A stretch of 64,000 nucleotides of DNA, taken from Bispira polyomma (taxonomy: Eukaryota). Of this stretch, positions 8,203 through 63,130 are shown in pieces. The notes beneath the pieces were generated by a model. It ran no database searches. It worked only from the letters and a program-made list of their open reading frames with translations, and had not been told where the DNA came from. Numbering within the stretch: the first letter of the stretch is position 1; each line of letters opens with the position of its first letter. The position numbers were made by a program, and so were the translations under genes. The stretch covers positions 54,250,001-54,314,000 of the forward strand of contig OZ287757.1 of assembly GCA_965649765.1 (NCBI GenBank), written 5' to 3'.

Positions 8203-8272
8203 ATGGGTCCGATGTACTTCCTGTTGATTGCTGTTGCATTGTGGGGCTCGACTTGTCAGGTGTCCTTTGCAG
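8203..8272 (+). CDS. Protease coding exon 1: signal peptide MGPMYFLLIAVALWGSTCQVSFA
   Basis: Good Kozak context aacaATGG, hydrophobic core ending S-F-A, donor GCA G|gtaaaa. An acceptor tttcag at 8136 implies an upstream non-coding exon. Confidence 0.85.
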
Positions 8273-16461: not shown

Positions 16462-16492
<31 letters not shown>

Positions 16493-43400: not shown

Positions 43401-46400
43401 TAATCTCGTGACTAGGTTTCTGTGGTCCCCTAATTAGTATATTACCAATTGTCTACGAGATGTCTAACCAAAACTTCATTCTTCGGTTGTTGGGTAATTT
43501 TGACAATGCCTAGCCCCTTACAACTTCAATGTTCATCAAACATTCCTGCTTGTGTAAAACCTTTCTTATTTTTATTTTCACTCCAATTGGCATCTTTTTC
43601 TTAATTTTCATAAGTTTGCTTACCCATGGACCAGACCTTCCATTTTGGGATATCAGCACCTTAGAGGATGTTTCTCGTCAATTTGGCGTTCTATAAATGC
43701 TACAAGTATATTATTCTTTAGTTAAATCGATGGATGGTGTTCCCCTTGGGAGAATATCCTGGGCCTGTATTCTGGAACGTATACTGAGCTGAAACTCGTA
43801 CTCCACTCAAATATAGACTCTGTGGAAATCCTTGTACATGGAAGTAACATACTTGTGACCATTAATAGAGCTTTTAACCCTGAATTCAAATATCAAGTCA
43901 GATTTTAGATATATTTGACCTATCCAGAGTTATAGAGAATCCAGATTTGAATTAAGTACGAGTTTGAGCTGAGTATACATTTGAGAAAACCAACCCAGGA
44001 AATCAGTTTGTGGCTATAGATCGCATTTATTACATTACATACAGTAGCACCTTTATTATCCAGCTATTTTGTTCTGATAATAGAACGTTTTTAAAATAGA
44101 AGCATTTCAGCAATTAAACAATGGAGAGTGCCACTTTGGGCAGAGTGGATGTGTTTGTATGTAATCGCATATCGGTAAACAGTGGTCTCCCTTGGCCTGG
44201 TGGTTTGACAGTTGGTCTGGTGCTCAGAAGGTTCCCAGTTCAACTTCCAACTGGGAGAGTTTGTCTGGTGATCAAAAGGTCTCTGGTTCAACTTTCACTA
44301 AAAGCCGCTAGGTTCAGTGGTGGGGGCAACATCCTTGGGCAAGATGTGAACATGCCATTGCCTACTGATGATGACCCAGACTATGTTGTTGCAGGGACTG
44401 TCCCTTTTGGAGAATAAGCGGCTTAGAGAATGATATTTCAATAGGGCGCTTTGTAAATAGAAATACTTCAATAATATTAAACAGAAATTTGAATAATAAA
44501 CACTCTGTACTGTGCATTTCTTTCAGAGGATTATGGGACGGTTCAGTGCATTCTGACAGAGTACCTCTGCGACGGTTTCATTGACTGTCTGTATAAACAG
44601 GATGAGAATCCCACTTTTTGTGCCTCTGCAGGAATCCCACTGACCTGTGGTCAGTCAAACACGTTACCATGTCCAGGTGAGAGGATTATGTGAACCCCTG
44701 TGGTCTCCCTTGATATCTGTGAGCATTGCAGTCACAAAAGTTGTAATTTGCTTGTTTGTGAGAGTTTTTGTGGGTGGGTGGGGGCAGGGAGTAGGGGGGG
44801 TGGAGGTTGGCATTTTGTGTCCAGATTTTTTTTCAATTGCATCATCCTTGTCACAGTCTTCAGTCGAACTCGGATCATTAGACACACTTATTGGTTTTTG
44901 GAAAAATCTAAAACCTATATTTTTAATCAGGCCTTTCCATTGTAGTTTCCCTCCTGTACACCCCCACATGCTTCCCTGTGACCTTGCTATGTCCACTGAT
45001 CACATGATTACATCACTGATTCTGCTGTTGCCTAGCATCCATAAAGTGAATTAAAATGCATATTAATAATAATAATCTATGAAATGCTCATTGGAGACCT
45101 ATTATCAATTTTATACAGAATCTATCTAAACTCAAATTCATTCGAATTGCAAAAATGAAAACAATTTCAAAGCAACCACAACATACACTAATACCTCTCT
45201 ACCTGCACTGCAATTATGGTGGCAAGTGCCCTGGTCAGTGGTCGCCTTGATTACTGTAACTCTCTTTTCAGAGGTCTTGCTGGGATTAGCCTGTGCAAAT
45301 TGCAGTCGGTGTGTCCAAAACAGTTTGGTTCGGATAGTAAAGAGAAAGTTTAAGTTTACTCGCATTACTCTTGTTTAAAAAAAAACCTCCACTGGCTGCC
45401 TAAATATTGAGTATAAAGCAATATTTAAAACTGCTATCTTAGTCTATAAATATCTCGATTCAGTTTTCTCTCCATATTTTAGTCCTCACTCTTCTCCCCT
45501 GTACATGTCAATGAAATACAAGGCCTAATAATGATTCTTAAGTGTCCCTACCTTTGTACAATTACTTCACAGGTCAAAAAGACATTTTAACAATAATTTC
45601 TCGTTTTATGTTTCTGTGCTGTAGAATGATCTGCCTCGTGGTAGTTGTAATGCCTCCTCACTTGCTTCCTTTAGGAAAAAACCTACCTACCTATTTAGCT
45701 AGGCTTTTTCACTATAGCCTCGTTACCTTTTCTGTCGTCTCTTTGGTCATAACCTCTCTACGTCCAGTGGCTATATGAAATTGTTAAAATAATGTTCCGT
45801 CTCCTGCGCGTTAGAGTCAGCTAGCACAGAGATAAGCACTGTAAAAGTTATAAAAGTACTTGGTTTTCCAGATGCTCCAACTAACGGGCTGCATTACTGC
45901 ATTAATGAGACCTATTTCTGCGACGGTTACCTGGACTGTCAGGACGGAAAGGATGAAGAACTGGCAGAGTGCCAAAAACTGGGAGTCACGCCTAAATGTT
46001 ATGATGAGGATGAGATCCTATGTCCCAAGCCAGGTGGGTTCAGTATACAGCCACATATTGCTTTTGTTTGAATTTTGAAAGTGATATCTGGATCCGATTC
46101 GGTCTAACTTGCATGTTCGGGAAAGTCCGGAAATTCATGAAAATATTATATCGCCTGCAAAGTAAAAACTATGTGCAAAAATATATTGTTTTGGGGGTAA
46201 TTTTGTTGTTTATACAAATTCAAAAAAAATAAAGCTACCTACCTAGTAGAATTTTTCATATTTTGACACTTTCATCAGTTTTAATTAATTTTTTTGCGAG
46301 TCACCATGGCTGACACGGCTGTAGTATGACGCAATTTCATTGGTTCAGACATTGACTGTTTCAGTGATTTTTATTGGCTGAACACACGTATAGCGACTGA

Positions 46401-49400
46401 CTAACCTCTAGTACAATATTGCCACAAAGTTGGACTATATGGGGTTTTCACTAAAACTAGGATGGACCTAAAGAATTTTATTACATTAAATTGCATACAT
46501 GCACACGCAGGTAGAATTGTATATAAAGGCTAGCCTCGCTTAAATGATGAAAAAAATTGTACTTTGAATATGTAAGTGGCTTGTATATACACCATTGACG
46601 GGTCTTCCCAAGCTGAAGGTACTTGGGTAGTGAAGGATATTTGTTTATTTAGATATGTGTAAATAAAATGAACTACAATACTCCTATATTCATTATTTAT
46701 AAAATGTTTTTATTAGTATTTGCAGAAGATCGAAAGTTTAGTCCAAACGGCTTTTGAAAATGGGGTTCGGAGCCGATTTAATAAGATTTGCATGTTTGGC
46801 AAATTCATCAAAATATTATATATTTATCCAACATATTAAATTGTTTTTTTTATCGGGTTTCAAGCTAGATTATGTAAAAAAAAAAAAATTATTGAAATTG
46901 TTTTTATGGTAATTTCGTTGATTATACAAAGAAAACAAATTGTTAGCTATCTTTAATTTTAAGCTACGTTATATTTTCATTTTTGTCTGTTGGCTTGTTC
47001 TCTAGAATCTTAAAAAATATGTGCCCAGTTTGAGACCATGCTTTCCATATACATCCAATTGAAGATATGTGACCAATTGTTGTGAAATTCAACAAGAGTT
47101 GTCTTTCAAAAAATAACATACGCACAGTGTGAAATACACCATAATATATATATGGCCACCATAGAATGGAAACATCAGCCTTTCGCCTGATGAAATCCCT
47201 AAATGGTAATAAATGTGTGACTCTAATTTCTCATCTAGATGACTATGGGATGGTGGTGTGTAGTTACGCCCACTTTGAGTGCACTAATTATACATACTGC
47301 CCCACGATGACAGAGGACGAAGAGTTCCAATTTTGCAGTAACCTGGAATGTCCTAGAGCAGATGCACTCTGCCCCGGTACAGGTAATTATGACTTTCTTC
47401 CTTGTTTATGCACACTGGCCTCCCACCTTTATAATATATATATGGTCCCGGTTTCGAATCTTGTTAGATTAGTTAGGGTTAATTATTTGGTCAAAATGAC
47501 AGGCCATCAGCAAGCCCTTCTGTTGAGTTTCATGAGATTTTGTTTAATGGAATTGTTGAAATATTGGCGTATTACCATTATAATCGCCACGATGATGACC
47601 TTGAAATGACCTGAGCCGTATCAAAACTCTGCATTAGTTTATTCAATTGACCCTGGTTTCTTATATGCTCACAATGCTTTACAAAGAGCCAAATTCCTAT
47701 TTTGTAAATGCTTGTAACCAAATGAACTGATAATCCAAGAAACCTTTTACAACCTAGCCTTGCAACCTGTATGGTCCCAGGTTCGAATCTTTGCTTGTTC
47801 ACCCATTTAAATTATTTTAAGTATTTGTCAATTTTTCATTCATCAAATATGGGTCAATTGGTACTTAAAGGTAACTTAGTCATTTTTCAAAAGACATTTG
47901 TTTGCCTTGGCTTCGAAAACCATACATTTTGTTTACACTAAAATGATATTCTGACAATAAAATTGTCTTTTGATGCATTAGTTTTATTTTTTTAAATTTT
48001 GGTAAATGTATTATATCTTATAACAGGTATTTCTTTGATCTCGCCATGGACTATTACATTTGTAGTTTAATTTCATTGACAACTGTCTTTCCCTGTTAGA
48101 AGTCTTGGCCGTTTCTAAACGGCTATTCGGTCGCAAAATGGCAAGTATTATGTTAACCTTCACAATTTCTTTAAAAATTGTAATGACTACTAGTGCGAGT
48201 AGGGTTAGTGCCTCGTATAATTAGTAATGACTTCTAGTGAGTGGGATTAGTGCCTCGTAAAATTAGTAATGACTTCTAGTGAGTAGGGTTGGTCCCTCAT
48301 ATAATTAGTAATGACTTCTAGTGAGTAGGGTTGGTGCCTCATATAATCAGTAATGACTTCTAGCGAGTAGGGTTGGTCCCTCATATAATTAGTAATGACT
48401 TCTAGTGAGTAGGGTTAGTGCCTCATATAATTAGTATTGACTTCTAGTGAGTAGGGTTAGTGCCGCCTATAATTAGTAATGACTTCTAGCGAGTAGGGTT
48501 AGTGCCTTATATAATTAGTAATGACTTCTAGTGAGTAGGGTTAGTGCCTCATATAATTAGTAATGACTTCTAGTGAGTAGGGTTAGTGCCTCATAGGTGC
48601 CCTTGAGGTGCTTAAGCGGAAACAAGTTATTATAATGTACACACTTATACACTAGGATGTTTAATGCTATACAAAATGTTCTTGTTACCCAGACGACTGG
48701 CGCCAGTGTCTGCCATTTTATTGGGCATGTGATGGGCTGCAGGATTGTCACTATGGAAGTGACGAAGATCAAGACTGGTGTAACAATATGACCTGTAACC
48801 CTGGATACGTCAGCTGTCCAGGGCGTAAGTATACGTCACATGGTTCTTTACTATACAACGCCATACCAGTTTAATGTAGCTCTCATCGGCACACAGGAAT
48901 TCAGCATATGTGGTATGGGTGCTTTAAATGTAAAATTAAATATACGTTTCAATTTGTGAGGTCACCAGTTGTAGCAAAGACAAACGTATTCTCCCTTGGT
49001 ATAGTAGATTTTAATCTCCATCGGTGACAAAGGGGTTAATGCAAGAAATTCAACAATTAGTATTAAAAGTTCAATGTTTCAGTTCACAATGTGTGCCAAA
49101 AGTTTATTGTAATACACACCAATGGGTCTGCTTGCTACTTTCTCATTCCCAGTAGTTAATGCCGACTAAAACGCATTTTAACACTATTTTCTCATGATGC
49201 ACCGAGGCTGTGGATTGATCTGCCTCGTGATATTTGCACTGCCTCCTCACTTGCCTGTTTTAGATCAGATACTGTAAAGGCAGGCGACCGCACATAATAT
49301 TAAAAATTTTCAATATCAAGCCATTTCCATAAATGTCCTCTGTCCATGTAAATGAAAATAAAATAGGACATTTGATATACTGCACTTATACAACACAGGG

Positions 49401-52400
49401 TCGTTCCAAATGCACTTAACTCATGGGCAGCCATAATGAGCGCCGTGCCATGGCTTGCTTGAAGATGACTATTTATCAGTGTCCCCAAGGATCTTTAATC
49501 TGCCACAGGAGATCAATGCAGAGGACCGCCATTTTAAGTGGTCATCCAAGCCACTAGGAAAACTTGTGTTCACATCTTGTTATGTCACTAAATGAAACCA
49601 GCGGCCTGTACCGGTATTAGAACCAGGGACCTTCTGATCATCAAACCAATGCCCTCGCCACTAGGCCACGGAGATCACCGACCACGGGGAGGACATGTCA
49701 CATCTATATATCCATCTGTCCATCTTCAGTCACTTACTCTTTCCCTGTGATAGTGGTTGGTCTGTTGTTTGTTGTCTGTTTATTTGATTATATATCCATC
49801 TCTCCATTTTTATGCCTTCAGCCACCTACTCTGGCCACCATGAGTGTATCATTCACATTTTAATCTGTAATAGGTAGTGTGACTATCTCCCCATCTGTGT
49901 CTATTTTGTCCATCTATCTCCCCATCTGTGTCTATTTTGTCCGTCTATCTCCCCATCTGTGTCTATTTTGTCTGTCTATCTCCCCATCTGTGTCTATTTG
50001 TATTCTTTCAGTCACCTACTCTGGCCTCCCCGAGTGTATCGATCCCTCCTCCCCCTGTGATGGTAACTATGACTGTTACTACAGCGATGATGAAGACGTC
50101 TCCTGGTGTCTATCTGAAGGTTACGAGCCTCACTGCAGCCAAGAGGGCACTATCGCCTGCCCTTACGACGGTAAGTCCAGGACTTTTATTATTACACCAC
50201 AACCTCCATTGTCAAAACTGCTGCTGTTCAATTTTTAATGAATTCAGTTTTATGAACTCGATCATTGCAACGGTAACTCAAGTGGACCGTGGTGGCCTAG
50301 TGGTGTTAGCACTTGCTTCACAATCACTGGCCACTTACCGAATGTGGGTTGGAATCCCATAGTTTGTTCTTTTATTAGTGGGATAGTTTGTCAAGAACTT
50401 GCCACAGGCCGGTGGTTTACAGTGGTTTCGCCTAAGCTGTTAAAAGCGACATCAAATCCAAGTAAATTCAAATATATTAAAAATTGTAAATTAGTGACGT
50501 TTTCTTCCAGTTAAAATTTTAACTTGTACAGTTAGTATTCAATTTGATGAACACAATTTCACTCTTCCGAATTTTTATTTTTTTCCTGTTTCTTCCAAAT
50601 TGATACTTTTTTCCTTTTTTGCTTTTTTAAAGTGAACTTTCTAATACTATCCAAAACACAATCCCTCCTCCACCCCCAAGATGCTCGTTTATAATAGGAC
50701 GATTCTACTGTACAACTATAACACCTTATTTCACACTTGTGCGGTGTCGTGTGCCGTGTGGGATCTTTTCTCGATAGACTCCATTGGCAACCTATCAAGT
50801 ACCGCATTGTTTCGAAGACCAATGTTTAAGTCAGTCAGTCCCCATATCTTGCCTCTTTGCCTGTCTTACTGCAGCCTTACCAAGGGGGAAAACAGAATCT
50901 CATTCTCTGATACCAGAACCATTAAATGGATTGGAGTCTATGCCTTCTCTGTCACAGCACCTGAACCCTATGGAATAATTTACTAGCCAATATATAGGAT
51001 CCCAGGAAACCCCTCTTGTTTCAAGAGCAATTTTAAGACCCATTTCTTTACCCTCGCTTACCCTCGATAGACATTTTTTTCCTCCATGTCGCCCCCCCTC
51101 CTCCCATCACGAATTTGCAATCTGAAGACTTCAATTTTAACAACTTTGTCAATGATGTGGCTCTTTTGGCATCAATAAGAAGCGTTACAAAAATCTATTG
51201 TGTACTTTATATATCAGATTATTCTGTCTGCGAAATAATGACCAAAATATTGTGTTGCGTGACTATATACTAGCTAAAACCTTCCGACCAAAAACAATTA
51301 CTAATATCTATGATGTCCGCCCAATAATATGCAGTAAAATATGTCAATTCATGAACTTAATTCATTATTATTTGGAATATAACACAAGACGCCTTCGGCA
51401 TTTTCCGTTTACTTCTTGTTTAAATATTGATTGATTGAGCAATGAAAATAAAAATGTAGATATATACAGACACTGATAACCAACAGTTAAAAAAATCACG
51501 GTTTTCAAAAAAGTAAGACCATGCCGGAATATATTTTAAATATGTTTTACTGCATTAAATGGCCCTATGTATGCTTCAAGTCGATGGAACTTTACTATTA
51601 ATTCAATATACATACTACCAGTACCACCTACAGGAGGTTATATTTTGATTTTTGTCCGTTGGTTTATATTTGTGACCGCTTCAGCGGCTACTGAGCCCTT
51701 GTTCGGTCTATATGTGCAGAATACAGCTGGGAAGTGGACTGTATTAATGCCACATATCCCTGTGATGGAATACAAGACTGTTACCTGTACAGCGATGAGA
51801 ACGTCACCTGGTGTAATGAGCAGGAAATTATACCAAAGTGTTTCTACAACGACACCATATTTTGTATACAACCTGGTGAGTGGGTAATATATGTGTACTT
51901 GTTGTATATTGATCTAGTGGCTAGGGTGTAAGTCTGACGATGAGTTGGTCCGGGGTTCTATTCCCAAAGTAATATCTGTGTAATATCAGCGCATTAAACA
52001 CGTGTTTATGAAAACCATGGTGATTCAGGTGGCGTTGTAGCATATCGTTTAAAAAAAAAAATTATTATTAGTAATATGTTTGATTAAAAAAAAGTTGTAA
52101 CTATCTACCAACTAACTATCCAGAATCTTAAACATAGGTCACTGTAATTAGCATGCTAACCCTGTATTATCCTAGATTTACCGAATAGAAGTCAGGCTTT
52201 TACTACAGTCTAGTGCCAAATTGGTATTGAAATGTACACCTTTTTTGAAGGTATTGTTGCATTTTCTATGTAAAAAACCGGTCGCCGTGTTGGCCTAGTG
52301 GTTAGAAACGCCTGCATTTACAATGACTGCCCTCTCACCAATGATGTGCGACATCAATCCCGTTCGTCCCTTAATGTGGGAAAGGTTTGTCAGGTCCTTG

Positions 52401-55400
52401 CCGTAGGTTGGTGGTTTACACAGTGGCTTTAGCTCTGGTTTCTTCCACCATTGAATCTGTCTGTCGCAATATGACCTACGCTTGTTGAAAACGACGTAAA
52501 ATGCAATTTTTTATAAAATTGCAACAGAATAAATTTGCTTTGTTTCCTGATCCTGTTACCTTTTTGTATTTTTTTGCAAGTGTATTTCTGGAACATTTGT
52601 TACAATCTATTGCAATACATATATTGTGAATGCAACTGAAATATCAGTGAAACCACAGTGGGCAAATATGACTGTTAGGCTTTTTTAGTTGCTATATATT
52701 TAATGCTATCATTTTCTATTTAAACAATACTAGCATTTCCTAATAAAAAAAACACAAGAGAAATCCAACAAAACCAGCTAAATTGATTCTCCGCCTTACT
52801 AATGAAAGAAGTAACTGATTACGCCATTACAGACAGATATCTGATGCAAATAAACAGGAAAAAAAATTAAAACAAAGAGTTGTCGTTGAAAATAAGACAA
52901 TTGGGCATACGGTGTCAAATACACTGATGCTGATCTGGCCACTATAAACGCCAGTGTGACGGCGTTATGAATGTGTCCATTTTATCCCTGTCACTCATTT
53001 CCATGCTTGTTATTAAATAGATGTTTTACCACAGATGCACCCCATCAAGTATTAATCTGACGCCCCTCAGTTTGGCCGGGTCGATTGCTTCCCACCAATC
53101 CACGCATGCCTTTACATAATATTGCTAAGACGGTGGCGCCCTTTTCAGAATCTAAACAAAATCAGGCCTTGGCAGGTAAAAGCCGAATAAAGAATCCCAT
53201 GACGAGACTAGCCCCCTACTATCTGACATTTCTAAGCCATTTTCTGTATTTTGGGGGATGTTCGACAGATGAGACTGTGAATTGTGTGCTGCTCGACTGG
53301 GTGTGTGAAGAAAAGGAGAATTGTCCACAGGGAGAAGATTGTACAGATCTGAGCTGCCGAGAAGGACTAACTGAATGCCCTAATCTAGGTAAGTTATGTG
53401 TGTGTGTTGTATAATAATATAATTATACTTTCCATTTTTAACATGCACAAGTCCCCTAACAAAACAGAAGCAACAATCAATCAATGGACCTAATTTTCCC
53501 TATAATTTTGTCCATATTGAACGCATTTCATTTCAATAAATAATTGATTTTTATATGTACAATTGATTTTATCTTAAGGCGTTTGTGTTATGTCATTTGT
53601 CCACCCATTCATTATTCTGAAATGAGCCATTTCTTATCAAAACGTTGTGTCTGGGGTTAGGTTGTTAAGGTATATACAACTCCTACAAAATAAAAAGGTT
53701 TTGTTTTTTATAAACAATAAATATGGGAGTATTTTAAATTTAAGATTAAAACTAAAATGATGAAAATTTAAAAAAAATTACCTTATATGTACACATGGTT
53801 TAGTTGGTTTTAATTTCTTCAACCCATCCAACAAAACATGGCCATGTCAGTGTGGTCTCTGATGGATCTTAATAAAATTGTCACAATACCAAAGATTCTA
53901 CCCTAAAATTAAATTAAAATGTGTTCGATGAGATGCCAGACCTGTGAGTTTTTCGTCTGTAAGTTAATATTTCATTAAGTCACTCTGACTTTAGCCAACA
54001 AAACAGGCTTGTGACAGCATTGATTGTATGTTCTATGGGATATTAGACCTTCAAGTTTTTTATCTCTGAAGAGGGGGCATTTGTAAAGTAATGTTTTATG
54101 AAGTAAGTTGCCTTTGGAAGTTTTCGTGGGCAAAAATATGAGAAGGTTATTCCATGTTTACTACTAGTGCTGTGATAGCTTTTAAAAAACGATGTCTGGA
54201 GCCGATTCATATAAATGCGCAGTTTCGGCAATTTCTGAAATTGTCCCTCTGGTAAAGTAAATGTTTCGATGAGATTTTAAAGCAAAAATTATATGAACAA
54301 GAAGTTATTGAAATAGTTTTTAGGGTAATTTGGTTGTATACTACAAAATTATAATGGCTAGCTATAATTTGAATGATTTTAGTGTTTGCTGCAATGCTTT
54401 CCAGACATAGGCAAAAAGCGATGTGTGACCACTTAGCAGTCACGGGCTTTTTTGTTAGTGACTCCACAGCCATCTCTAGCCGATTACCGAAAACTTTTTC
54501 GTTCAGTTCCCGGCGATGGTTCTCTCATGGGGGTCGAATCAGTTAACCATTCGTGTGTAGTGCTATTGTAGATAGATCCTAATGGTCACCTGTCCCCTTC
54601 TGTTTTTGCAGACAATATAATGTACTGTGTGAATGAGAGTTACATTTGTGATGGTATCTGTGACTGTCTCAACTGCACAGAGGAGAACATGACTTGGTGT
54701 ATTGAGGAGAATTACCCATTGGAGTGTTACTTTAGCGATGAGATAACCTGTCCATTGAGCAGTAAGTATTGTATTCAGATTTATACTTGGCACATATATC
54801 TACCTTCCTCTGGTATTCAGAGTGGTAATTAAATCTTTCCTGACTGCAACAGTCAACTGCCTCATTTACTGTGATTCCCCTAACTGAAAAGCTCTAGAGG
54901 CTTGAGGGTGACGCCATTTATCAAGGATCTTCAGCCCTGCCACTGTCGATAGGGACCCAGTGATAGGGGACCACCATTTTAAGTGGTCATTCGAGCCACT
55001 CGGCAGACGTGTACACATCTTGCCCAAAAATGTTATCCTACCAATGAAACTAGCGGCCAGTACCGTGAAATAGAACCCAGGACCTTCTGATTATCAGACT
55101 AACTCCCTTACCACTAGGCCACGGGGGACCACTATGTAACCTTTTTGAATGGAATCTAATCCAATCTAATCTTTTATCATGCTTATCTGTGTGCCAGCAG
55201 ATTCTAAGGCGCACAAGACAGAAAATCATTTTGACAATCTTGTATAGCCTTTGGACGAACAGGGGTTGTGACCATGTAGGTGCCGGAAAAAAGGTCAGGA
55301 GGCAAAGGTGGAAAAGCCTTGCTAAATAGTTATGTCTTCAGCTTTATCCTAATACAGGCAAGTGAGGAATCAGTACGAATCCAATGAATCTACTCCTGAC

Positions 55401-58400
55401 CGGGGGAGAGCATATAAATCGAATCTCAGCCGAGGTGGGACTATATACTGTTCAATCTTTACATTTTATATCGGTTTCTCTCTGTATATTGTTCACAGAT
55501 GACGTCACTGGGTATGAGCTGTACTTCCAATGTATTCCACCCCAGTGGGCTTGCGATGGCTATGCCGACTGCCCCGATGAAACTGATGAAGACTTTGACT
55601 GGTGCATGTCACTCCCCTGTGACGATTACTTCGTCCCCTGTCCAGGTAAGATTGTTGACAAACATAATACATCTGTGTGTTAACAATTTTAAAATGTTTG
55701 GCTACGCAATGCCTGTAAGCATGTCTTTCGTATGGAATGTTTTAAATCTGCAAAAAACATGCAGTATAATGCTCGGTAGGTTGTTTACGCTCTCCCATCA
55801 GTCTCCCTTGACCCTATTCTGTTTTTAAACTTAAACATCTTGGCAATTTCCCGACCGATTTTAATGCAACAAAAAGCACAGTAATCGCAATAAAGGTAAG
55901 CTTTCTCATCTTTCTCAGCGAATTGTTTTGCACAGGTATCGAGACTTATTTTAACAAATAATAGTGATACAGGAACTATTTTCAAATGTTACAAATGCTA
56001 ACTTTTGCTGCTTTTTAATGGGTTTGTTTATTAAATAGAATGACGGTACTTCACTGTCTAAACAGAATCCGAAACACTAATCCATGAAAATAGGACACTT
56101 AGCGATACGGACACACTTTTAGGTGCTTCAGTAATCTAATCTAAATACCTCTTTTGGGATGGGTGTTCAATTTTCCTTGAGAGAACTCCAATCATCATTA
56201 TTAGCATCCTAATTATAAGGCCAAAGTCGTAATAAAAGAGGGATATAGCCGTAGTAGTTTACAAATTAGCATTCAAGTCCAGAGGAAAGGAAGGCAACAT
56301 TAAAATGGCCTGGTGTGATGTGACTTGGGATGCTTTCTACAAAAGGGTCAATGCTCGGTGATTAATGGGTGGTGGGGGGTGAAGCCCTAAAATAGGGAGT
56401 CTCCAAGACTTGACCATTTGCGAAAAACTAGTCTAACCCCTTTAAGTAGAACTCCATTCATCTTTTATGTGGGTTTTTGCATGATTATGCCAATGCTTAT
56501 TGGCATAATCGTGCTTTCCCGGGGAAAGAGGGGGACAAATAGGGGTAAACCCTTGGTTACACATGGCAACTATATGTCGACAGGGTCATCTCAGAACTCG
56601 CAAGGATTACCGCTTTCATATTTGACGTACATATGGAATCTGTTTCAGTGACGGCCCATTTTTTAATTTGAAGTCAATATTGCTAGAAATAAGTCAGAGA
56701 TCTCCATTTTCTGTTTAGGGATTGTGAGCTTCTATTGAAGGGCCTATCACCACCCATTTCCGGTTTCTCGGTTTCTAGAACGATGTCATCAGCTGGTTGA
56801 TTCATCGATAGTTTTTGTGAATGGTAGTAAAAAAACGTAGTAAGGTCACATGATCTTCCGCTCATGGGCAGTGATGCGATTAATACATCTTTGTAAAGAA
56901 ATTGTTGTAAAAACCTTAAAAGTTTTGAGATCAATAGGCATTGATCAAATTATGATTTCTCTGTAATTACTTAAACTAAAATTTTATGATTTATTTATCA
57001 TGAAACAGCAATTAATACACTTTCTGACCCTTTTTACAGAATAAAATTTTATTTAATATTCACCGAGACACAAGTCTGTATATTGTACATACATATTTTA
57101 CTGTAAATTCTATTTGGCAGTCATTTTTTTTTTAAGAAATCTGCGTATACCGAACGATCAATCTCCCAGTCAATGAAATATGAGCTGAGATCTGTTAGAA
57201 ACTGTGATTAAACTTCAAAATATTTCTGATGGATGGATTGTATGTTCTAATTTGCATCTGTTACACGGCTGTAGGCAATTCTAAACGGTCGGTAATTCTG
57301 AACGAAAATACAAATAAAATCCACCTACTGTAATTTTGAAAGCAACCATTTAACACCAGTAAATGTACATGCTATTATATTCTTTTCGACCAAATTTTCC
57401 ACTTTCTATCAATATTTTCAATATTATCAACAAATATAAAACACTTATTGGTTTAAGTCCTATTTACCAGCTTGTGTCGACAAACAAAATGACGTCATCA
57501 ACATCTGTTCAGAATTTCTGTCTTTGCTATTTGACAGTTTTTAATACATTATTTGACACTTCTCTATTGAAAAACAGGGATATACAAGTTTTGAAACAGG
57601 TACCTAAATAAAATAAGTATTCTTATTTATTTAGTGCCTTTTTAATGCATTTTGTCCCGAATTTTGCAAATTTAACGAAAAATCGTTCAGAAATGCTGAT
57701 GACCGTGTAACAAAAATCTCTATAACCACCACTCGTCTCGAAAACGTAAATTGCTTATATCTATCGTCAAACGTCCTGTTAGTGTACGCTTCCTGTTAAC
57801 GGACACCAGTTCTGCTAGCAAATCTCTTATTTTGGGATTTAAAATTAAAATGAGGATGAAAACATAACAGCATTCTCTAATCTTTTATTTTGTATTATCG
57901 CCCATTAAAGACCGACTCTGTAGCGACTGTATCCTTGTCAATTTCGACGGCTAACTAGTGACTGGGTCACTATTTTCAGACTACGGCTTTGTTGTGGCAT
58001 TATCATGATATGGCCGCCAGGCCATTCTCCTCTTGTCTGACTGTTGTTGCAAAAATGCCTTTTTAGGGTAAATGTTTAAAATCGTAATTTAGACTTTGAG
58101 ACCACTTGGGTATTTGTCTTTCTAACATCGGTAAAACGGCTTTTATTAATCAGTCTTTATTTATGATGGCTGAATTACAGAGTCGACAAGTGAAAACCTT
58201 TATTTTTGTCCAGTTTGTAAAAACATAGAGTGTAGGATTACATGATACACGGATGTTTATACAGTAAAACTTCTATCATCCGAACTGATTCTGATGAAGT
58301 AATTGCCACGCCCCCTAAAAATGTTTTTTCCCTATTGTTTTGTACAGAAAACCATGTTCTATTTTATAAACCTTTCTATTTATCCAAACAAAATCTTTCT

Positions 58401-61400
58401 CTCCCAACATGTTCGGGTAGTAGAGGTACTGGTGTATTCATTGTATCTACTGATCTTCATTGGGAGGTAAGCTTCTCTGCGACTGAAATTAGCCTCATTA
58501 TGAAAAGTAAGATGGCCACCATCGGCATTTCTTTGAAAATTATCCACTTTTTTCTACTGGCTGGTTCTCGTAGCTAGAAGGTTAAATCTCTTTATAGGTG
58601 ATATGTATAACAGATATATATGTCCTCTACAAGCATGCAGACATTTGACCTTTAAGCTCTTCATTGTCATCTGCGGAGTGCCAAAGTACCCTACATAGCG
58701 GACTGTAAAAGTACTTATAATTCGCTTATTATTGGTCCTCGAGGTTTGGCATTTGAAGCCTACCTATAGTAAATCATGGGCTAGGAATCTTCGGATGTGG
58801 TCAAGTTTGACCATGGGCCCCTCATTCAAGGTCAAACAAGGTATCCAAACTTAAAAATGGTTATAACTTGCTTATTATTGGTCCTAGAGGTTTGCATTTT
58901 GAAACCAACTTATAGGTAATCATAGGCTGGGAATCTTCTGATGTGGTCGGGTTTCACCTTGCGCCCTTCCATCAAGGGCAGACAAGGGTTGTTAAACTTA
59001 AAGTGCTTATAGCTCGCTTATTATTGGTCCTACAGTTTTGACATGTGAAAGCAACCTATAAGAAATTATGGGCGGAGAGTTTTCTGATATGGTCAGGTTT
59101 GACCTTGGGGTCCCTCCTTCAGGGTCAAATGACAATAGCCAAACTTAAAAGTGCTTATAACTCTTATTATTGGTCCGACAGGTTTCCAATGTGAAACCAA
59201 CTTGCAGTTAATCATGGACTGAGAATCTTCTGATGTGGTCTGATTTGACCTTGGGCCCCTCCTTCAAGGTTAGACGAGGGTAGCCAGAGCTTGGGTGCTT
59301 CCTACCTAGGATATCTTTCTGGTGGATACAAATATGCATCAGTTCTCCGATGCGCTAGGTTTAGTTCTATATAAAATAAGACTTCCATATACTTTTAGGT
59401 GGCATACAGATCGAGTATCAAAGGCGACAGAAAGGGGACAGAAATCGCCCCCAAGGGCTCACCGAGGAGAGCAGGAAGTCGGTCAGGGGTGAAGGTCGCA
59501 GTAATAGAAACTATGGTTTGAAAGTGAAAGAAAGGGATGACCTTAACACATGGGAAGGCAAGGTCGCAAGGAGAGGGGATAACCGACCGACCAACCTGCC
59601 TGCTCGCGAGGACTTGCACGCTAGAGTGGATAAAGTCAGACAGGAAGTGGAGAACAATAACCAGAAAAAACGAGACAGAACAAGGAGCAAAAACACTCGA
59701 GGCAATACTATTGAGACGAGAGAGGAAAGGCAAAAGGGATCGGCGAAGGATGATATGATGCAAAAGGCAGGAGAAGAAAAGCCTAGGGAATGGGCAAAGA
59801 ATGATATGAAGAAGAAAGCAGAACAAAGACAAAGGGAATCTGCAAAGGATGATATGAAGAAGGCAAGGGAACAAAGGCAAAGGGTATCGGCAAAGAATGA
59901 TATGATGAAGAAGGCAGCAGAAAAGCAAAGGGGATTAACAAAAGATGATATGATGAAGAAGGCAATGGAACAAAGGCAAAGGGGATCGGCGAAGGATGAT
60001 ATGATGAAAAAGGCAGGAGAACAAAGGCAAAGGGGATCGACAAAGGGTGATATTGAGACAAGGAAACACCAGGAACAAAAGAGCGGCAGTGCATGGGTTC
60101 AGAGGTCTCTGAGCAAGGTAAGAGAGTAGAGGAATGTGGGTTATAGCCCCTGAATCTGACCTTTTGACCTTCGTGTGATAATTATTTAGGTCACCACGCT
60201 GAAAGGGTTAAGAGTGCTCGAAGTGTAAGAAATACGTTTCTATAGTCTGTAAAAAAATATGAACAGTTTACAGAGATTTACAAGATTTCTGTGTGTGGGG
60301 TGGTGTGTGTGTGTGTGTGCAGCCTATTGTGTGTATATAATTATGCTGGGGAATAAACCCAGACAGGTCACGCGCGAAAGATTAGATAATATTACAACTG
60401 TTCAATTAATTCTCAATTTTGTATGTCAACAAGGATAAATACCGCCTACTTTTATGCATTTAACAGTGCAGAATGAAAGGCGAATGCCACAAAAAATAGG
60501 AAATGGACTCAGAGTTTATCTTTAACAGGGCTCCACTGTGGCCTGTAATCTCGAATTTTAGTCGAAACTACTTCATATAATGTCATTTAGTTTGTCTTGC
60601 GTTGATCGTGAGAAAAATTAACTTCCCAAAGGATTACAATACAGAGGCGTCTTTATGTCAACTCAGTGTACCAGTGAATCATATGCAGGCCCTCAGAGAA
60701 AAATCAATAACAATAATGGATTGTGTTCAAATACATTGCTGGTACCTAATTCACAAAATTAATGTTAAACCATTGAAAAACCATAGCTTACTCAAATTGA
60801 CAAAATATTGGTTTAAAATAGGTTTATCAAATGACTTATAATCGTTTGTAATGTTTGCTGGCTTTTTTTACGATTTTTGATGACTCATCTGTGTGAATAA
60901 ACCAGTCAACAACTATCTTTACCATTACATAGTAAGGATCATTGGTTTCCGAGTCCCACTCCTCTTCCAGCATTTAAAGCCAAATGAGTGTATGGTAGTT
61001 GTACACAGAACTCGGACAGTTTTAACTTGTAAGAGTATGTTGTGTAATATGCATTCTGTCATGCCGGCATCGTAATAACCCATAACAATCCACGGCCTGT
61101 ATCCACAAAATGTCAGTCTTAAGATTTTCGTCTTTGATTTTGGCTAAAAAAAGGTTAAGATTTTGGTTATGAATCTCTGTTTAGTGTTAACTTTGCTCTT
61201 AACCCACTAATTGTGTATATACATACTCTATATACACATAGTCCCCCCAAGAAAACGATTATAAGCAATAATTTTTTTACCAAAAATATTAACTAAATAC
61301 ATAATATAGATCGTCTCTGTGGCCTAGTGGTTAGAGCATCCGACTTTGTATCTCAGGGTCCAGGTTCTATAGTCGCTGCTAGCCTGGAGATGGCTCCCTT

Positions 61401-62012
61401 GGTACATAATACTGCCAAAATCGTGTCTCCACTTAGCTTTCTGATAATATTTTGTAGTTTAATATGCAATTCTCTATCAACTCTTTCAATGTTATCGGGA
61501 CACAAATAACTTCTTTCATAGGCCACTCAATTTCAACTTCACCATATCTTCAAAAGACTTATTTAGATTATTGTATTAAAGTCCCCTTTATCTTTTTTGC
61601 AATGTAGGCAACAGGTCTGCCTTCATGTGAACAAACTTATAACTAAACTATTTGGACCATTACCACAAGTCGGTTTGTTTGATTTAAATCATTGATCATT
61701 CACTTAACCTTTTTTAGCAAAAAAATAGAGCACTTTTTAATTTTTTTGGAAACATTTTAATTTTTTTGGAAACATGTTGATTTTTTTTAGTGACTTTGAT
61801 TTTCTAAGAAAAACTTTCCTTTCTTAATGATTGACATTTCAGTTAATATTGGTAATCCCTTCATCAATTATCATCTGTTTATGTGTCATTCAATAGTACT
61901 GACTTTTTATACTCTTGAACAATTATTACATAAAACCTTACTTGTGGTCTACAAGTAAGTTTGTTTTTCTATTTTATTTTTTCTGCAGAGGATTAAGCCC
62001 ACTTCGCCATGA
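8203..62012 (+). CDS. Whole gene span: secreted M12B (ADAM/ADAMTS-like) metalloprotease with ShKT-like, mucin, 13 LDLa-like repeats and a basic repeat tail; 32 coding exons, ~1548 aa
   Basis: Hand-spliced GT-AG exons (listed individually) sum to 4647 nt = 1549 codons including the stop, with matching phase at every junction and no internal stop. Confidence 0.85.
8738..8997 (-). mobile_element. tRNA-derived SINE, young family, copy 1
   Basis: Reverse complement of the 16225 copy, with A box (TGGCCTAGTGG) and B box (GAGTTCGAATCC). Flanked by a 14-bp TSD tggt(t/g)gatataaca at 8724-8737 and 8998-9011. Confidence 0.9.
9355..9563 (+). CDS. Exon 2, prodomain (ESGETIAFVKIHE...QKLHLEKQ...VKPKR)
   Basis: tag/cag NAGNAG acceptor, phase 1; LHLEK motif typical of M12B propeptides; donor AGG|gtaaat. 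Confidence 0.85.
9780..9990 (-). mobile_element. L2-type LINE 3' fragment
   Basis: Minus strand SFTVAAHSEWNSLPPTLCTKTRITGFREKINTH. Confidence 0.65.
10537..10623 (+). CDS. Exon 3, prodomain (RVAWYQDLDNMAAIMVEVNEGEGRLKKSL)
   Basis: tttttctag|CGG...CTG|gtaact, phase 0-0, 87 nt. Confidence 0.85.
10904..11075 (+). CDS. Exon 4, prodomain (TGTMLSGSRAFEIRP...DFDGQ)
   Basis: ctacag|ACA...CAA G|gtatct; G...FEIRP matches the M12B propeptide G...YxIxP pattern. Confidence 0.85.
11095..11262. mobile_element. MITE with TA-flanked TIRs (related copy at ~11566-11726)
   Basis: tacattcaaacccctttaag...cttaaaggggttcaattgta. Confidence 0.65.
11861..12160. repeat. 18-bp G-rich minisatellite, ~16 copies
   Basis: Unit ggagtggcct(tta/cta/cca)ggtgg; followed by a MITE-like end acaggtttgactgta. 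Confidence 0.95.
12756..12927 (+). CDS. Exon 5: end of prodomain, RQGR convertase site, start of catalytic domain (FHIEMLLLVDYSVYS)
   Basis: Pyrimidine tract plus aag acceptor (in-phase alternative cag at 12794); IEMLLLVD is the first reprolysin strand; donor TT|gtaagt. Confidence 0.85.
12911..13058. repeat. 22-bp tandem repeat straddling the exon 5 donor, 7 copies
   Basis: Unit tactcggtgtactcattgtaag; the last two copies are shortened to 19 bp. Confidence 0.95.
13743..13821 (+). CDS. Exon 6, catalytic domain (FWMNEVNQVEADAKEEILYFYVHIFNA)
   Basis: ctcag|C...GCG|gtgagt, phase 2-0. Confidence 0.9.
14468..14545 (+). CDS. Exon 7, catalytic domain (MYMAYRNIDPAKMTIVLWLTEIHIIN)
   Basis: attttag|ATG...AAC|gtaagt, phase 0-0. 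Confidence 0.9.
15391..15518 (+). CDS. Exon 8, catalytic domain (EASKEVAK...TDNVQLWT)
   Basis: ttttgacag|GAA...ACC AA|gtaaga; DNVQLWTKQDL aligns with the reprolysin DxAxLxTxxD motif across the junction. Confidence 0.85.
15845..16009 (+). CDS. Exon 9, catalytic domain including HELGH
   Basis: cttcag|G...CAC AA|gtaagt; reads QDLW...VLGVAYVCGLCWVNVSISLNEDHGHYSWVTGAHELGH. Confidence 0.95.
16225..16492 (+). mobile_element. tRNA-derived SINE, young family, copy 2 (full length with poly-A)
   Basis: ggggccgcggtggcctagtggttag head, B box gagttcgaatcc, ~23-nt A tail, TSD-like aatcaa(t/g)gtca. Confidence 0.9.
16630..18210. mobile_element. Non-autonomous interspersed repeat (~1.5 kb); second, internally deleted copy at ~56495-58020
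   Basis: Shared blocks such as ataggcattgatcaaattatgattt... (17688 and 56933), tctgtttcagtgacgg.ccattttt and gtggcat.atcatg.tatggccgc. Confidence 0.7.
18228..18565 (+). mobile_element. HINE/Helentron-like element, 5'-truncated copy
   Basis: Same ~135-bp core repeats and 3' end (ggtggatgcaaatatgcatcg) as the 20059-21005 copy. Confidence 0.75.
18916..19028 (+). CDS. Exon 10: third zinc ligand and Met-turn (NLGSQHDENECINPNKYIMS...AFSFS)
   Basis: ctccag|T completes AAT, giving HELGHNLGSQHD (HExxHxxGxxHD) and the YIMS Met-turn; donor G|gtaaag. Confidence 0.95.
20059..21005 (+). mobile_element. HINE/Helentron-like (DINE-1-type architecture) non-autonomous element with central tandem repeats
   Basis: 5' ttgtatccacc and 3' ggtggatacaa sub-terminal inverted repeat, (gcc)n microsatellite, ~135-bp internal tandem units, 3' hairpin gcatcgg-ttct-ccgatgc then ctagttt. 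Confidence 0.75.
21115..21166 (+). CDS. Exon 11, end of catalytic domain (DCSINYFKSCLLGKDNT)
   Basis: poly-T cag|AT...GA|gtaagg; gives the FSDCS motif across the junction. Confidence 0.92.
21222..21625. repeat. 39-bp intronic minisatellite, ~8 good copies plus decayed ones
   Basis: Unit gacaccagtctaaccaagttgtc(t/c)(g/c)tactaacaaaccca. Confidence 0.95.
22743..23140. mobile_element. Foldback element with ~115-bp inverted arms
   Basis: gtgccaaacc...tttttggtgctctgtaatg...actagtaaacg...gtgtaatttgagg is mirrored by cctcaaattacac...cgtttactagt...cattacagagcaccaaaaag...ggtttggcac. Confidence 0.8.
23266..23422 (+). CDS. Exon 12, ADAMTS-type disintegrin-like/Cys-rich start (…LPGQKYSLSDQC…DKC)
   Basis: ctttcag|A...TGT|gtaagt; PGxxYSxxxQC is the ADAMTS hallmark after the catalytic domain. 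Confidence 0.92.
23920..25166 (+). pseudogene. DIRS ORF1 (gag-like), frameshifted
   Basis: Consecutive ORF pieces 23820/24070/24468 ending in a basic RGG-rich tail, immediately before pol. Confidence 0.65.
25170..27060 (+). pseudogene. DIRS pol: RT, RNase H and adenine-methyltransferase-like domain, frameshifted
   Basis: GFYSRLFLVPK, IDLTDAYLH, QFQALPFG, YIDD, INFKKS, LFTDASNIGWGA, HINLLEL, SDN, NVIADSLSR, VDLFAT...YAFCP, spread over several frames. Confidence 0.92.
27050..28110 (+). pseudogene. DIRS tyrosine recombinase, frameshifted
   Basis: PSWDLSLVL, ALASGKRRGEIHA (catalytic R), LCPV, HDLRSMAAS (HxxR), W...NTFTSFYLKD (catalytic Y). Confidence 0.9.
31081..31197 (+). CDS. Exon 13, ADAM Cys-rich domain (…PCHLLRCVSKDDVC…AAMGTPCDSL)
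   Basis: ttcatcag|TAC...CTT|gtaagt, phase 0-0; AAxGTPC motif. Confidence 0.92.
31993..32056 (+). CDS. Exon 14, end of Cys-rich domain (GCTTGDCVCYRGNCVANSTIT)
   Basis: attttcag|GGC...G|gtaatg; CxxGxCV motif. Confidence 0.9.
32969..33022 (+). CDS. Exon 15, short linker (GPVDKDQQCKLTTYNIIG)
   Basis: ttttttatag|GC...A|gtaagt, 54 nt, phase 1-1. Confidence 0.75.
33185..33345. repeat. ~43-bp tandem repeat, 3-4 copies
   Basis: aaccatttcaaccactgtgttgtcgactagcacttcttgaatg. Confidence 0.9.
35137..35259 (+). CDS. Exon 16, ShKT-like domain (CEDYYGNC…WHC…NCSRSC)
   Basis: tttttcag|CT...A|gtaagt; CxD...C...C...CxxSC spacing of ShKT domains. Confidence 0.85.
36114..36275 (+). CDS. Exon 17, Thr/Ala-rich mucin-like linker (…PPCEIG…TTAAAA repeats)
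   Basis: poly-T caaaag|TT...G|gtatgt, 162 nt, phase 1-1. Confidence 0.85.
36759..36896 (+). CDS. Exon 18, LDLa-like repeat 1
   Basis: ttccag|…QCLPLHFACDGFDDCSGGGDEDLTWCQSQTCPVGLVACPSQ G|gtaaga. Confidence 0.92.
36961..37425. mobile_element. MITE (gtattcacaaaaa TIR) containing a nested MITE at ~37038-37293
   Basis: Outer gtattcacaaaaaggtctt / aagacttttttgtgaatac; inner tacatgggttgtca.taacttgtc / gacaagtttataacaacccgtgta. Confidence 0.7.
37456..37608 (+). CDS. Exon 19, LDLa-like repeat 2 (7 Cys)
   Basis: ttttcag|…SCIPETFPCDGAQDCPYNDESISWCESKGYDKTCFDSCHVPCPIN C|gtgagt. Confidence 0.92.
37668..37910 (+). mobile_element. tRNA-derived SINE, young family, copy 3 (5'-truncated)
   Basis: Near-identical to copies 1 and 2; perfect 14-bp TSD gtttgaaaactgat at 37654-37667 and 37911-37924. 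Confidence 0.92.
38034..38200. repeat. ~32-bp tandem repeat, ~5 copies
   Basis: ggcaatatatac(t/c)gt(t/a)atttctgtagt(a/g)aact. Confidence 0.85.
41011..41166 (+). CDS. Exon 20, LDLa-like repeat 3
   Basis: gttgcag|…ECIWYEFPCDGIRDCWNSDDENLAWCASENITPTCYGSDNIPCPKQ G|gtaaac. Confidence 0.92.
42441..42550. repeat. C-rich low-complexity repeat (~20-bp unit)
   Basis: ccgacacccccc(c)tctccc repeated ~5 times. Confidence 0.85.
43209..43343 (+). CDS. Exon 21, LDLa-like repeat 4
   Basis: ctttgcag|…TCIPASYTCDGFEDCALGSDEDPDFCKNMVCPEGTSRCPDQ G|gtaaat. Confidence 0.92.
44527..44676 (+). CDS. Exon 22, LDLa-like repeat 5
   Basis: ctttcag|…QCILTEYLCDGFIDCLYKQDENPTFCASAGIPLTCGQSNTLPCP G|gtgaga. Confidence 0.92.
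45200..45850 (+). mobile_element. L2 LINE 3' region, decayed
   Basis: ALVSGRLDYCNSLFRGL and LHWLP remnants; the tail abuts the exon 23 acceptor. Confidence 0.75.
45872..46033 (+). CDS. Exon 23, LDLa-like repeat 6
   Basis: ttttccag|…YCINETYFCDGYLDCQDGKDEELAECQKLGVTPKCYDEDEILCPKP G|gtgggt. Confidence 0.92.
47239..47382 (+). CDS. Exon 24, LDLa-like repeat 7 (degenerate acidic motif)
   Basis: catctag|…VCSYAHFECTNYTYCPTMTEDEEFQFCSNLECPRADALCPGT G|gtaatt. Confidence 0.88.
48174..48594. repeat. 42-bp minisatellite, ~10 copies
   Basis: ataattagtaatgacttctagtgagtagggttagtgcctcat. Confidence 0.95.
48693..48824 (+). CDS. Exon 25, LDLa-like repeat 8
   Basis: tacccag|…QCLPFYWACDGLQDCHYGSDEDQDWCNNMTCNPGYVSCPG C|gtaagt. 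Confidence 0.92.
49480..49690 (-). mobile_element. Second tRNA-SINE family, minus strand (sister copy ~54920-55130)
   Basis: Shared caaggatctt…ggacc.ccattttaagtggtcat…gaacc…gaccttctgat…ccactaggccacgg (A and B boxes on the minus strand). Confidence 0.7.
49884..50000. repeat. ~30-bp pyrimidine-rich tandem repeat forming the exon 26 polypyrimidine tract, 4 copies
   Basis: tatctccccatctgtgtctattttgtc…. Confidence 0.9.
50012..50170 (+). CDS. Exon 26, LDLa-like repeat 9
   Basis: ctttcag|…ECIDPSSPCDGNYDCYYSDDEDVSWCLSEGYEPHCSQEGTIACPYD G|gtaagt. Confidence 0.92.
51720..51875 (+). CDS. Exon 27, LDLa-like repeat 10
   Basis: tgtgcag|…DCINATYPCDGIQDCYLYSDENVTWCNEQEIIPKCFYNDTIFCIQP G|gtgagt. Confidence 0.92.
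52280..52505 (+). mobile_element. Old tRNA-SINE (Meta-domain-like); relatives at ~10040-10240, 13207-13610, 35590-35740, 50284-50460, 63300-63460
   Basis: tggcctagtggttag head, core gtttgtcaggtccttgcc…ggtggtttac…ggtttcttccaccatt…gatatgacc…gttgaaa.cgacgt.aaa. The Meta assignment is from recalled consensus and was not searched. Confidence 0.6.
53269..53388 (+). CDS. Exon 28, LDLa-like repeat 11 (shortened, degenerate)
   Basis: cgacag|…NCVLLDWVCEEKENCPQGEDCTDLSCREGLTECPNL G|gtaagt. Confidence 0.88.
54612..54761 (+). CDS. Exon 29, LDLa-like repeat 12 (8 Cys)
   Basis: ttttgcag|…YCVNESYICDGICDCLNCTEENMTWCIEENYPLECYFSDEITCPLS A|gtaagt. Confidence 0.92.
55499..55645 (+). CDS. Exon 30, LDLa-like repeat 13
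   Basis: ttcacag|…QCIPPQWACDGYADCPDETDEDFDWCMSLPCDDYFVPCP G|gtaaga. Confidence 0.92.
57262..57709. mobile_element. MITE (tacacgg TIR family) nested in the larger repeat
   Basis: tacacgg…attctgaacga versus tcgttcagaaat…gaccgtgta. Confidence 0.6.
58441..59366 (+). mobile_element. HINE/Helentron-like element, copy 3, ~5 central tandem units
   Basis: High similarity to 20180-21005, including aaacaagatggccgcc-like block, ~135-bp units and the 3' ggtggatacaa plus hairpin. Confidence 0.8.
59399..60117 (+). CDS. Exon 31, 719-nt charged/basic low-complexity tail with 16-17-aa repeats
   Basis: cttccatatacttttag|GT in the phase-1 frame required by exon 30, open for 239 codons (extends ORF 59518), strong donor AAG|gtaaga; repeat length variants are whole codons. 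Confidence 0.7.
61989..62012 (+). CDS. Exon 32, terminal coding exon (RIKPTSP*)
   Basis: Very strong acceptor tttttctattttattttttctgcag; TGA at 62010-62012 in phase 0; AATAAA at 62141. Confidence 0.65.
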   Translation, partial: RIKPTSP

Positions 62013-62140
62013 TACGTTTCTGTTGCCTAAAGACAACTCCTGGAGAGGCTGGATTAGGACATTGTGTCAAATGCTTTTGTCGAATCTACACAACTTTTCT
62101 ACTCATTATTAATAAGAAATTGTTAAGAATACCTGATAAA

Positions 62141-62146
62141 AATAAA
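62141..62146 (+). terminator. Candidate polyadenylation signal of the protease gene
   Basis: AATAAA ~130 nt after the stop, followed by T-rich sequence. Confidence 0.45.
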
Positions 62147-62250
62147 AACACGTCTATTGCAATCATTTGTTTCAATTCTGTCCCTTTCAGTCGTTTTTTT
62201 TTACCTCTTTGCGGCCTTATGCTGTTTGTAAAAATTTGAGCTTGACCTAA

Positions 62251-62755
62251 TGTGGCAGTCACATGGTCCACGTTCTATAGGACCATTTACTCCCGATGTG
62301 AAGGACTTGTGTGACCTGGAGAAAACGTGCCCAACTTGTTCAAAACGTCGGTGGTTGGTTTTGAAAGCACAGCTAGAGAGAAATGGGAAAAAAGCAGTGT
62401 GGTTGGGGCTGAAACGGGTCATAAACAGGTCTACAACTGCTCAGACTTGTGTAAGACTTGGGTTTAAACTGTTTAGAACTTGTGATCTTGCCAGAACTGG
62501 AGTAATTTGGTGTAATCTGGAGCAACTGTTACATGAAAGTGTGATGAACTGCTTAGATCTAGTCTGTTCAGGACATAAATTAGTCATAAACTGGTCAAAA
62601 AACTGATCTGGTCAAAGCGGAGCATAAACGGGCGATGCAAATATATGCAAATCCAAATTAACATTTTCTCCCCATTCTCTCCCCACCAGCCAAGTTCTGA
62701 TGATCTGGAGTTAACCTATAAGCTTGGCGAGAACTTGGACAGTGTGACTGCCGCA
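62251..62755. mobile_element. PIF/Harbinger-type non-autonomous element
   Basis: TIR tgtggcagtcaca / tgtgactgccgca with a TAA target-site duplication on both sides. Confidence 0.7.
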
Positions 62756-62789
62756 TAAGCATGGATTGGCTGTATCCAGAACTTGTAGT

Positions 62790-63130
62790 AGCGATTGTAG
62801 TGGACTAATGGTTAGAATGTCTTGAGTTTAGATACGAGGGTCCAGGTTTTATCATTATTGCAGGCTTGGAGATTGTACCCTTGGACAAGGTACTTCACAC
62901 AAAGCTGTCCCTCTCTCTACCCAGGTGTATAAATGGGTACCTGGCCTCTAATGGGCATTCGTCATAGTGCCGTTTGTGTGGTAGCATGGCTATAGTATGC
63001 TTCCTGAGGGAGCTAAGAGTGATCAATTGGTTGACAAGTGGAAAAAACCAGGCTGGGGGTGTAAACTGTAAAGTAGGCTGAGACCTCAATACAGGTGATT
63101 TCGGACTAGAAACCTACACGCATTTATTTA
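62790..63130 (+). mobile_element. CORE-like SINE (relatives at ~22150-22370 and ~44300-44460)
   Basis: tRNA-like head then gtacccttggacaaggtacttcac…ctctctacccaggtgtataaatgggtacc, resembling the CORE domain. Confidence 0.6.

Follow-up and report, generated by a model that had tools for sequence, protein, structure and literature searches.

Within the window, the whole 64,000-nt stretch of DNA analysed here, located at C10:54250001-54314000, we built by hand the model of a gene that spans positions 8203-62012, with 32 exons all bounded by AG and GT and 1,549 codons uninterrupted by an internal stop; it lies, like every feature given below by its window coordinates, on the forward strand. Judged by the order of its domains, the product is a predicted secreted, ADAMTS-like protease of the M12B type, not an LDL receptor. 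A signal-peptide-like exon encoding a hydrophobic N-terminus (8203-8272) is followed by predicted prodomain exons (9352-9563, 10537-10623 and 10904-11075), which have no Pfam match and are conserved in paralogs, and then by the exons of an M12B (reprolysin) catalytic domain (12756..21166). Pfam matches to the latter are sub-cut-off and fall on a single exon (Reprolysin_5 and Reprolysin_3, E=4e-4 and 6e-4); the zinc motif HExxHxxGxxH is intact at residue 383, split across the 16009/18916 junction, and a Met-turn lies in the exon at 18916-19028, its Met about 23 residues after the zinc motif. ADAMTS cysteine-rich (disintegrin-like) exons come next (23266-23422, 31081-31197, 31993-32056 and 32969-33022; span 23266..33022), two of which match profile positions 1-23 and 27-58 of PF17771 at E=0.003 and 0.02, each below cut-off alone; they precede a ShK-like exon (35137-35259; PF01549 at E=0.0034, short of the cut-off when the exon is scored alone) and a Thr/Ala-rich linker exon (36114-36275). 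Intron 12 holds the remains of a retrotransposon (~24000-28200) with RT and RNase H matches and a recombinase-like ORF that has no Pfam match; the element is likely of the tyrosine-recombinase kind.

Like ADAMTS proteases, the model has an HExxHxxGxxH motif with Met-turn and ADAMTS cysteine-rich domain 2; its signal-like N-terminus and predicted prodomain may correspond to theirs, and no membrane-spanning stretch was found in its 1,549 residues, nor was a YWTD propeller. It differs from them in carrying a ShK domain and an LDLa array instead of a thrombospondin type-1 motif: neither WxxW nor CSxTCG occurs in the model or in the three forward frames of the window, and the 28 of 32 exons scanned have no Pfam thrombospondin match. 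The best named relatives, which combine M12B, ADAMTS_CR_2 and ShK, are four proteins of Intoshia linei (OAF67595.1, OAF69449.1, OAF70166.1 and OAF71358.1) and DgyrCDS100 of Dimorphilus gyrociliatus, and their nearness suggests that the gene belongs to an annelid-type family. ADAMTS_CR_2 is present in all four Intoshia proteins, reprolysin in three and ShK in three, with a Thr-rich linker next in most. These relatives end in extra ShK or EGF repeats, those examined having no charged tail, and PF00057 appeared in none of 14 long homologues, in a word-based search that is weak evidence of absence; a query with a single catalytic exon retrieved no longer homologue. Annelid transcripts with reprolysin and ShKT have been reported, without this architecture in the available part of the source (PMC5778601). 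A text search of the literature found no combination of reprolysin, ShK and a long LDLa array, which annelid transcriptome supplements could still hold.

The array itself is encoded by 13 phase-1/phase-1 exons (36759..55645, starting at 36759, 37456, 41011, 43209, 44527, 45872, 47239, 48693, 50012, 51720, 53269, 54612 and 55499), each of which contributes Cys3-Cys6 followed by Cys1-Cys2; no further LDLa exon occurs within 40 kb beyond the window. Pfam Ldl_recept_a matches 10 of the 13 at E<=0.1, with five reaching cut-off as single exons, while a family profile matches all 13 and hits LRP2, VLDLR and LDLR. The array shows the six-Cys pattern of LDLa with its calcium ligands D-x-x-x-D and D-E, the flanking Asp pair being complete in 11 of 13 modules. 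The Cys3-Cys6 core superposes on LDLa modules (PDB 2FCW) at about 1 Å over 21-31 residues, and fold searches returned weak LDLa matches only (best E 0.4, Z<=2.7), the domain being small. A reading of the letters and open reading frames, made without database searches (hereafter the sequence-only reading), had counted 13 strongly acidic repeats. The exon count and the acidity stand, the array having a net charge of -112 (about -88 with 12 Ca2+), but the repeats do not correspond to 13 complete modules: the introns separate Cys2 from Cys3, and the canonical reading is therefore 12 whole modules with a half-module at each end. The array contains 81 cysteines, an odd number, with extra Cys in the exons at 37456-37608 and 54612-54761 (one with seven, one with eight).

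An array that begins at Cys3 and ends at Cys1-Cys2 is found in this gene and in paralog D (C6:40372215-40392620). Hidden capping exons were found at neither end of the array in either gene; two candidates fell within a repeat of high copy number. Near 35870, a stretch with Cys was considered as an LDLa end and rejected (E=28; it would split the ShK domain). LDLa modules ordinarily pair Cys1 with Cys3, Cys2 with Cys5 and Cys4 with Cys6, Cys1-Cys2 lying N-terminal to Cys3; in this ordinary register the two half-modules leave four cysteines without their usual partners. This raises the possibility, which we hold to be unlikely, that LDLa is circularly permuted here and in paralog D, each exon folding by itself and all 78 canonical cysteines pairing, or else that the half-modules join head-to-tail and make the array a ring or part of a chain linked by disulfides; the end cysteines could also be free. 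Circular permutation in which repeats duplicate and the ends are lost is known from the saposins and swaposins, which share with this array tandem modules cut mid-module at both ends; the permuted register here could have arisen in a similar way, had exons been duplicated and the capping exon at each end disappeared, the difference being that our literature search found no report of such a permutation for LDLa. AlphaFold2 folds one LDLa exon alone (49-sequence alignment; pLDDT 84, pTM 0.60), and the model has two short strands, one at residues 11-12 and the other at 45-46, as a permuted module would; since an isolated exon has no other partner to pair with, this shows only that a permuted module is feasible, and fold searches, which align sequentially, cannot show permutation. 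Cys2-Cys3 loops measure 8-14 residues across the junctions versus 6 where both cysteines lie in one paralog exon. The arrays of paralogs A and H start with a whole Cys1-Cys6 module, and those of A, B, C, H and I end at Cys6, as fits ordinary modules spanning introns; in A and C these same exons, internal to the array, function in the ordinary register, which counts against the shift. Were the permuted register real, the helical tail described below would start directly at a complete module and could brace the acidic rod, and the gene would hold a naturally occurring, circularly permuted form of an extracellular module that is among the best studied.

Downstream of the array lies the predicted penultimate exon (59399..60117, 719 nt, phase 1 to 0), preceded by AG and followed by GTAAGA, which encodes a Cys-free, charged tail of 239 codons (K+R 68, D+E 41). 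As the sequence-only reading had proposed, the segment is open throughout in the frame of the upstream exon; the other two frames hold 13 and 19 stops, and none of 5,000 dinucleotide shuffles stayed open. Its donor at 60117 ranks 4th and its acceptor at 59399 ranks 22nd among the gene's own 31 sites, and because both scores fall within the gene's own range we count them in favour of an exon. The predicted last coding exon (61989..62012) adds seven codons and a stop, with AATAAA ~130 nt downstream, and its acceptor has the top score among 480 AG sites in 55700-63990. Together the two exons would give a tail of net charge +29, or +0.11 per residue. The tail exon is single copy in the 1.035-Gb genome; its DNA is present in three runs (contigs, from at most two samples) with no letter differences, none of them recorded as RNA. 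The stretch at ~58400-59366 is an element of very high copy number that contains a tandem unit of 146 bp.

It is conceivable that this segment is no exon, or is usually skipped, being a purine-rich minisatellite in the last intron of a gene whose protein ends just past the array. The acceptor is middling and lies 32 nt after the end of the high-copy element, and a direct splice from 55645 to 61989 would yield two residues and then a clean stop. Yet the donor is strong, and the first 339 nt of the exon, 113 non-repetitive codons, are open in only 34 of 5,000 shuffles. In paralog D, moreover, the last LDLa exon is followed directly, at the same position, by a basic exon in phase 1 that is open for 143 codons (0 of 5,000 base shuffles open), and the repeat units show the excess of synonymous changes described below. 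We consider it very unlikely that the exon is false or mostly skipped; it is probably real and coding, and 59399-60117 is likely the second-to-last exon of the predicted secreted ADAMTS-like zinc protease.

The tail is not homogeneous. Its first 113 codons (59401..59739) are non-repetitive and predicted to be disordered except for one helix at tail residues 69-99, whereas six full units of 16-17 residues (59740..60036; 71-90% DNA identity), with degenerate units on their flanks, are predicted to be helical. TRF reports 6.6 copies at 59726-60053 (period 48/51, 75% matches). Some seven repeat copies had been described for the exon, which is borne out by the six full units and their degenerate flanks, with the qualification that these occupy only the last ~330 nt, under half of the exon; the accompanying statement that unit lengths change by whole codons without stops is correct, three units being 48 nt and three 51 nt, all stop-free. 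Within the repeat's 99 residues (K20, R11, D10, E9, M11, A12) the net charge is +12, so that a Lys/Arg/Met-rich basic character is present but belongs to a mixed-charge sequence. When the units are compared with the majority unit, synonymous changes make up 8 of the 23 distinct ones, versus 27 of 153 possible changes, corresponding to a dN/dS of ~0.4 (P=0.04; a rough figure that depends on manual gap placement); that the repeat contains no stops is by itself a weak indication (P=0.25 under neutrality). The 17-residue repeat looks like this gene's own way of lengthening its tail, through tandem duplication with weak purifying selection.

In the repeat, pairs of opposite charge at i+3/i+4 outnumber like pairs by 37 to 13 (P=0.026, within-unit shuffle), and for 15 of its 20 lysines an acid stands three or four residues away in the same chain. 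With acids placed three to four residues from lysines, the repeat likely stabilizes its own helix. AlphaFold2, run on the tail without an alignment (mean pLDDT 64, pTM 0.25), places helices at residues 69-99 and, in the 127-208 region, at 127-177 and 181-208, with pLDDT 86-94 over 131-170; together with the charge spacing, this favours the helical tail that the sequence-only reading had supposed. In textbook single helices the E+K+R content is higher than in the repeat, where it is 40%. The tail resembles single alpha-helix (SAH) domains in being a charged, predicted long helix with opposite charges at i+3/i+4, and departs from them in that modest E+K+R content, in its richness in Met, Ala and Asp, in the Gly/Ser at unit joins and in belonging to a secreted protein; such spacing is described as stabilizing single helices in the part of PMC5812594 available to us. 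The tail has no match among longer proteins or in Pfam and no usable match in the ESM Atlas; among PDB sequences there were two matches at E about 0.3, which we judge to be chance, and none to RAP. A likeness of the repeat unit to LEA proteins found no support in Pfam. Taken by itself the repeat is modest, and the tail is of a common sort; it is the protease carrying it that is unusual.

The feature that had drawn attention to this exon was a possible role as a built-in ligand, in which the helix would present successive pairs of lysines to the Ca2+ pockets of successive LDLa modules, in the manner of RAP, and so aid folding or mask the array. On a helix, the KK pairs, which recur every 15-17 residues, would be spaced 22-26 Å apart, close to the 21 Å between Lys256 and Lys270 of RAP given in the available part of PMC3304490. 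The same part of that source describes the lysine pocket of the LDLR family as an aromatic residue two before Cys4 together with D-x-D-x-D between Cys4 and Cys5, its central Asp tightening lysine binding ~20-fold; modules with DxxxD still bind lysine weakly, a blocked-lysine probe being bound 6-9-fold less tightly (PMC3304490), and tethering in cis could add avidity. The modules here keep the aromatic in 12 of 13 cases and both flanking Asp (D-x-x-x-D) in 11, but in none is the central residue acidic (F, A, I, F, F, Y, Y, L, N, I, K, I and Y in order). In the portions of the sources that were available, changing this Asp to Ile abolished ligand use by VLDLR modules (PMC11297306), and doublets that bind RAP strongly carry a Trp in each of their two modules (PMC8239462); here Trp occurs in three of 13 modules, never in adjacent ones. 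Paralogs resemble this gene in this respect, with DxDxD in five of 54 pattern-matched modules (P=0.58 versus this gene; the pattern caught 12 of this gene's own 13 modules). The protein shares with RAP (LRPAP1) and the LDLR complement-type repeats an LDLa-like Cys3-Cys6 core and, in the same chain, a predicted lysine-rich helix, and differs from them in having no DxDxD pocket, YWTD propeller or membrane anchor, its tail matching neither Pfam nor RAP. Further points are that the LDLa-less paralogs E and G seem to have no long tail, which would suit a ligand for the array, and, on the other side, that most repeat lysines already have acidic partners within the helix, that the repeat occurs in no paralog and that the net charge of the tails is inconsistent. 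RAP-like docking on the protein's own array is thus poorly supported, and we think it highly improbable; the modules, which for the most part lack the lysine pocket, likely recognize something other than the usual LDLR-type ligands.

Proteolytic release at the tail's many dibasic sites was also proposed by the sequence-only reading: 12 such sites are present versus 19.1 expected from composition (shuffles; P=0.016), and the tail exon contains no R-x-K/R-R site. Being below chance, the dibasic sites signal nothing in this gene.

The catalytic exon is present at nine genomic loci, seven found by search and two more, D and H, in the genomic stretches taken; A2 and I are further LDLa arrays whose 5' part was not found in the stretches taken. 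All paralog models, like that of the present gene, were built by hand. Members of this reprolysin-cysteine-rich-ShK family, with none to many LDLa modules, lie at C6 70.24-70.34, 71.69-71.98 and 72.79-72.81 Mb, and others at C10 3.60-3.63, C11 51.92-51.96 and C2 7.41-7.42 Mb. We regard the host gene, a member of this expanded family of predicted secreted reprolysin proteases that join ShK to long LDLa arrays, as more useful than the repeat.

Charged exons follow the last module at seven of the eight LDLa-bearing loci (A, A2, B, C, D, H and I); at F, none occurs within 13 kb, and its 3' end was not found in the stretch taken. The six paralog tails measured contain 36-52% charged residues and 0-2 Cys, with net charges from -1 to +11; a stop was reached in two of them, so the other four are partial. 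The 17-residue repeat is in none of them. Among these tails a resemblance was seen only between those of C and I, and none is like this gene's, not even that of D (pairwise E=0.97), its closest paralog, in which 12 of the 13 LDLa exons have their best match and which is ~50% identical. The sequence-only reading had proposed to look for a basic tail in relatives of the gene; what most of the paralogs have in common is a charged exon after the array, in the same place with dissimilar sequence, so that a charged tail appears to be a family trait whose sequence is free. These loci are not all independent: C, I and A2 are near-copies, and E and G, in which no LDLa matches occur and whose ends seem to lie no more than about 2 and 17 residues from a short post-ShK exon, may have lost the array together with the tail in a single step.

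Paralog tails bear also on two further readings. One is that the helical part of the tail forms a coiled coil, an arm that would cluster several proteases with the repeat as spacer. Leu at heptad-like spacing can be seen by eye in the tails of A and H, and in this gene Leu/Val occupy tail residues 72, 76, 79 and 83, inside the confident helix at 69-99; but the hydrophobic stripe here runs for less than two heptads, hydrophobic moments in the tail are low (0.03-0.35) and D's tail has no heptad-like pattern, which together leave an oligomerization arm with little likelihood. The other is that the tail condenses with the acidic array by charge-block self-assembly, or anchors the protein to sulfated glycans or mucus, with no defined pockets. 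The opposed net charges of array and tail fit this, and D shows the same polarity, its tail being +11. Set against it, the tail offsets about a third of the array's charge, its net charge per residue is small, A's tail is -1 and those of B and I come to +3 and +2 over the part that was read. This too we consider distinctly unlikely.

To the more general reading we give about an even chance: that the tail is a charged, partly helical extension that would make the protein soluble or help to package it through non-specific charge, rather than a lock-and-key ligand of the LDLa modules. The feature conserved in the family would then be a Cys-poor tail with 36-52% charged residues and otherwise free sequence, which could help a strongly acidic protein with many disulfides to stay soluble and to be packaged; the splicing and helicity that this supposes are themselves predicted. 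Trimming at basic pairs during secretion is possible, though not signalled in this gene. The tails of B and H (C11:51916945 and C10:3603105) begin with Gly-Lys-Arg right after the last module, which we take to resemble an amidation and convertase signal.

Several paralogs depart from the pattern in other ways. At D (C6:40361488-40393993) the prodomain is present, the catalytic domain is truncated and lacks the zinc motif, and neither cysteine-rich nor ShK exons were found; the long LDLa array, which is followed by the basic tail, includes one exon with a stop and several partial exon copies. Having lost the zinc motif and carrying a stop in an LDLa exon, D may be a protease-dead member or a pseudogene. 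G has His-Ile-Leu-Gly-His where other members have His-Glu. Just downstream of A, at C6:70351897, lies a single ORF of 268 codons that by eye is like a Ras-family GTPase.
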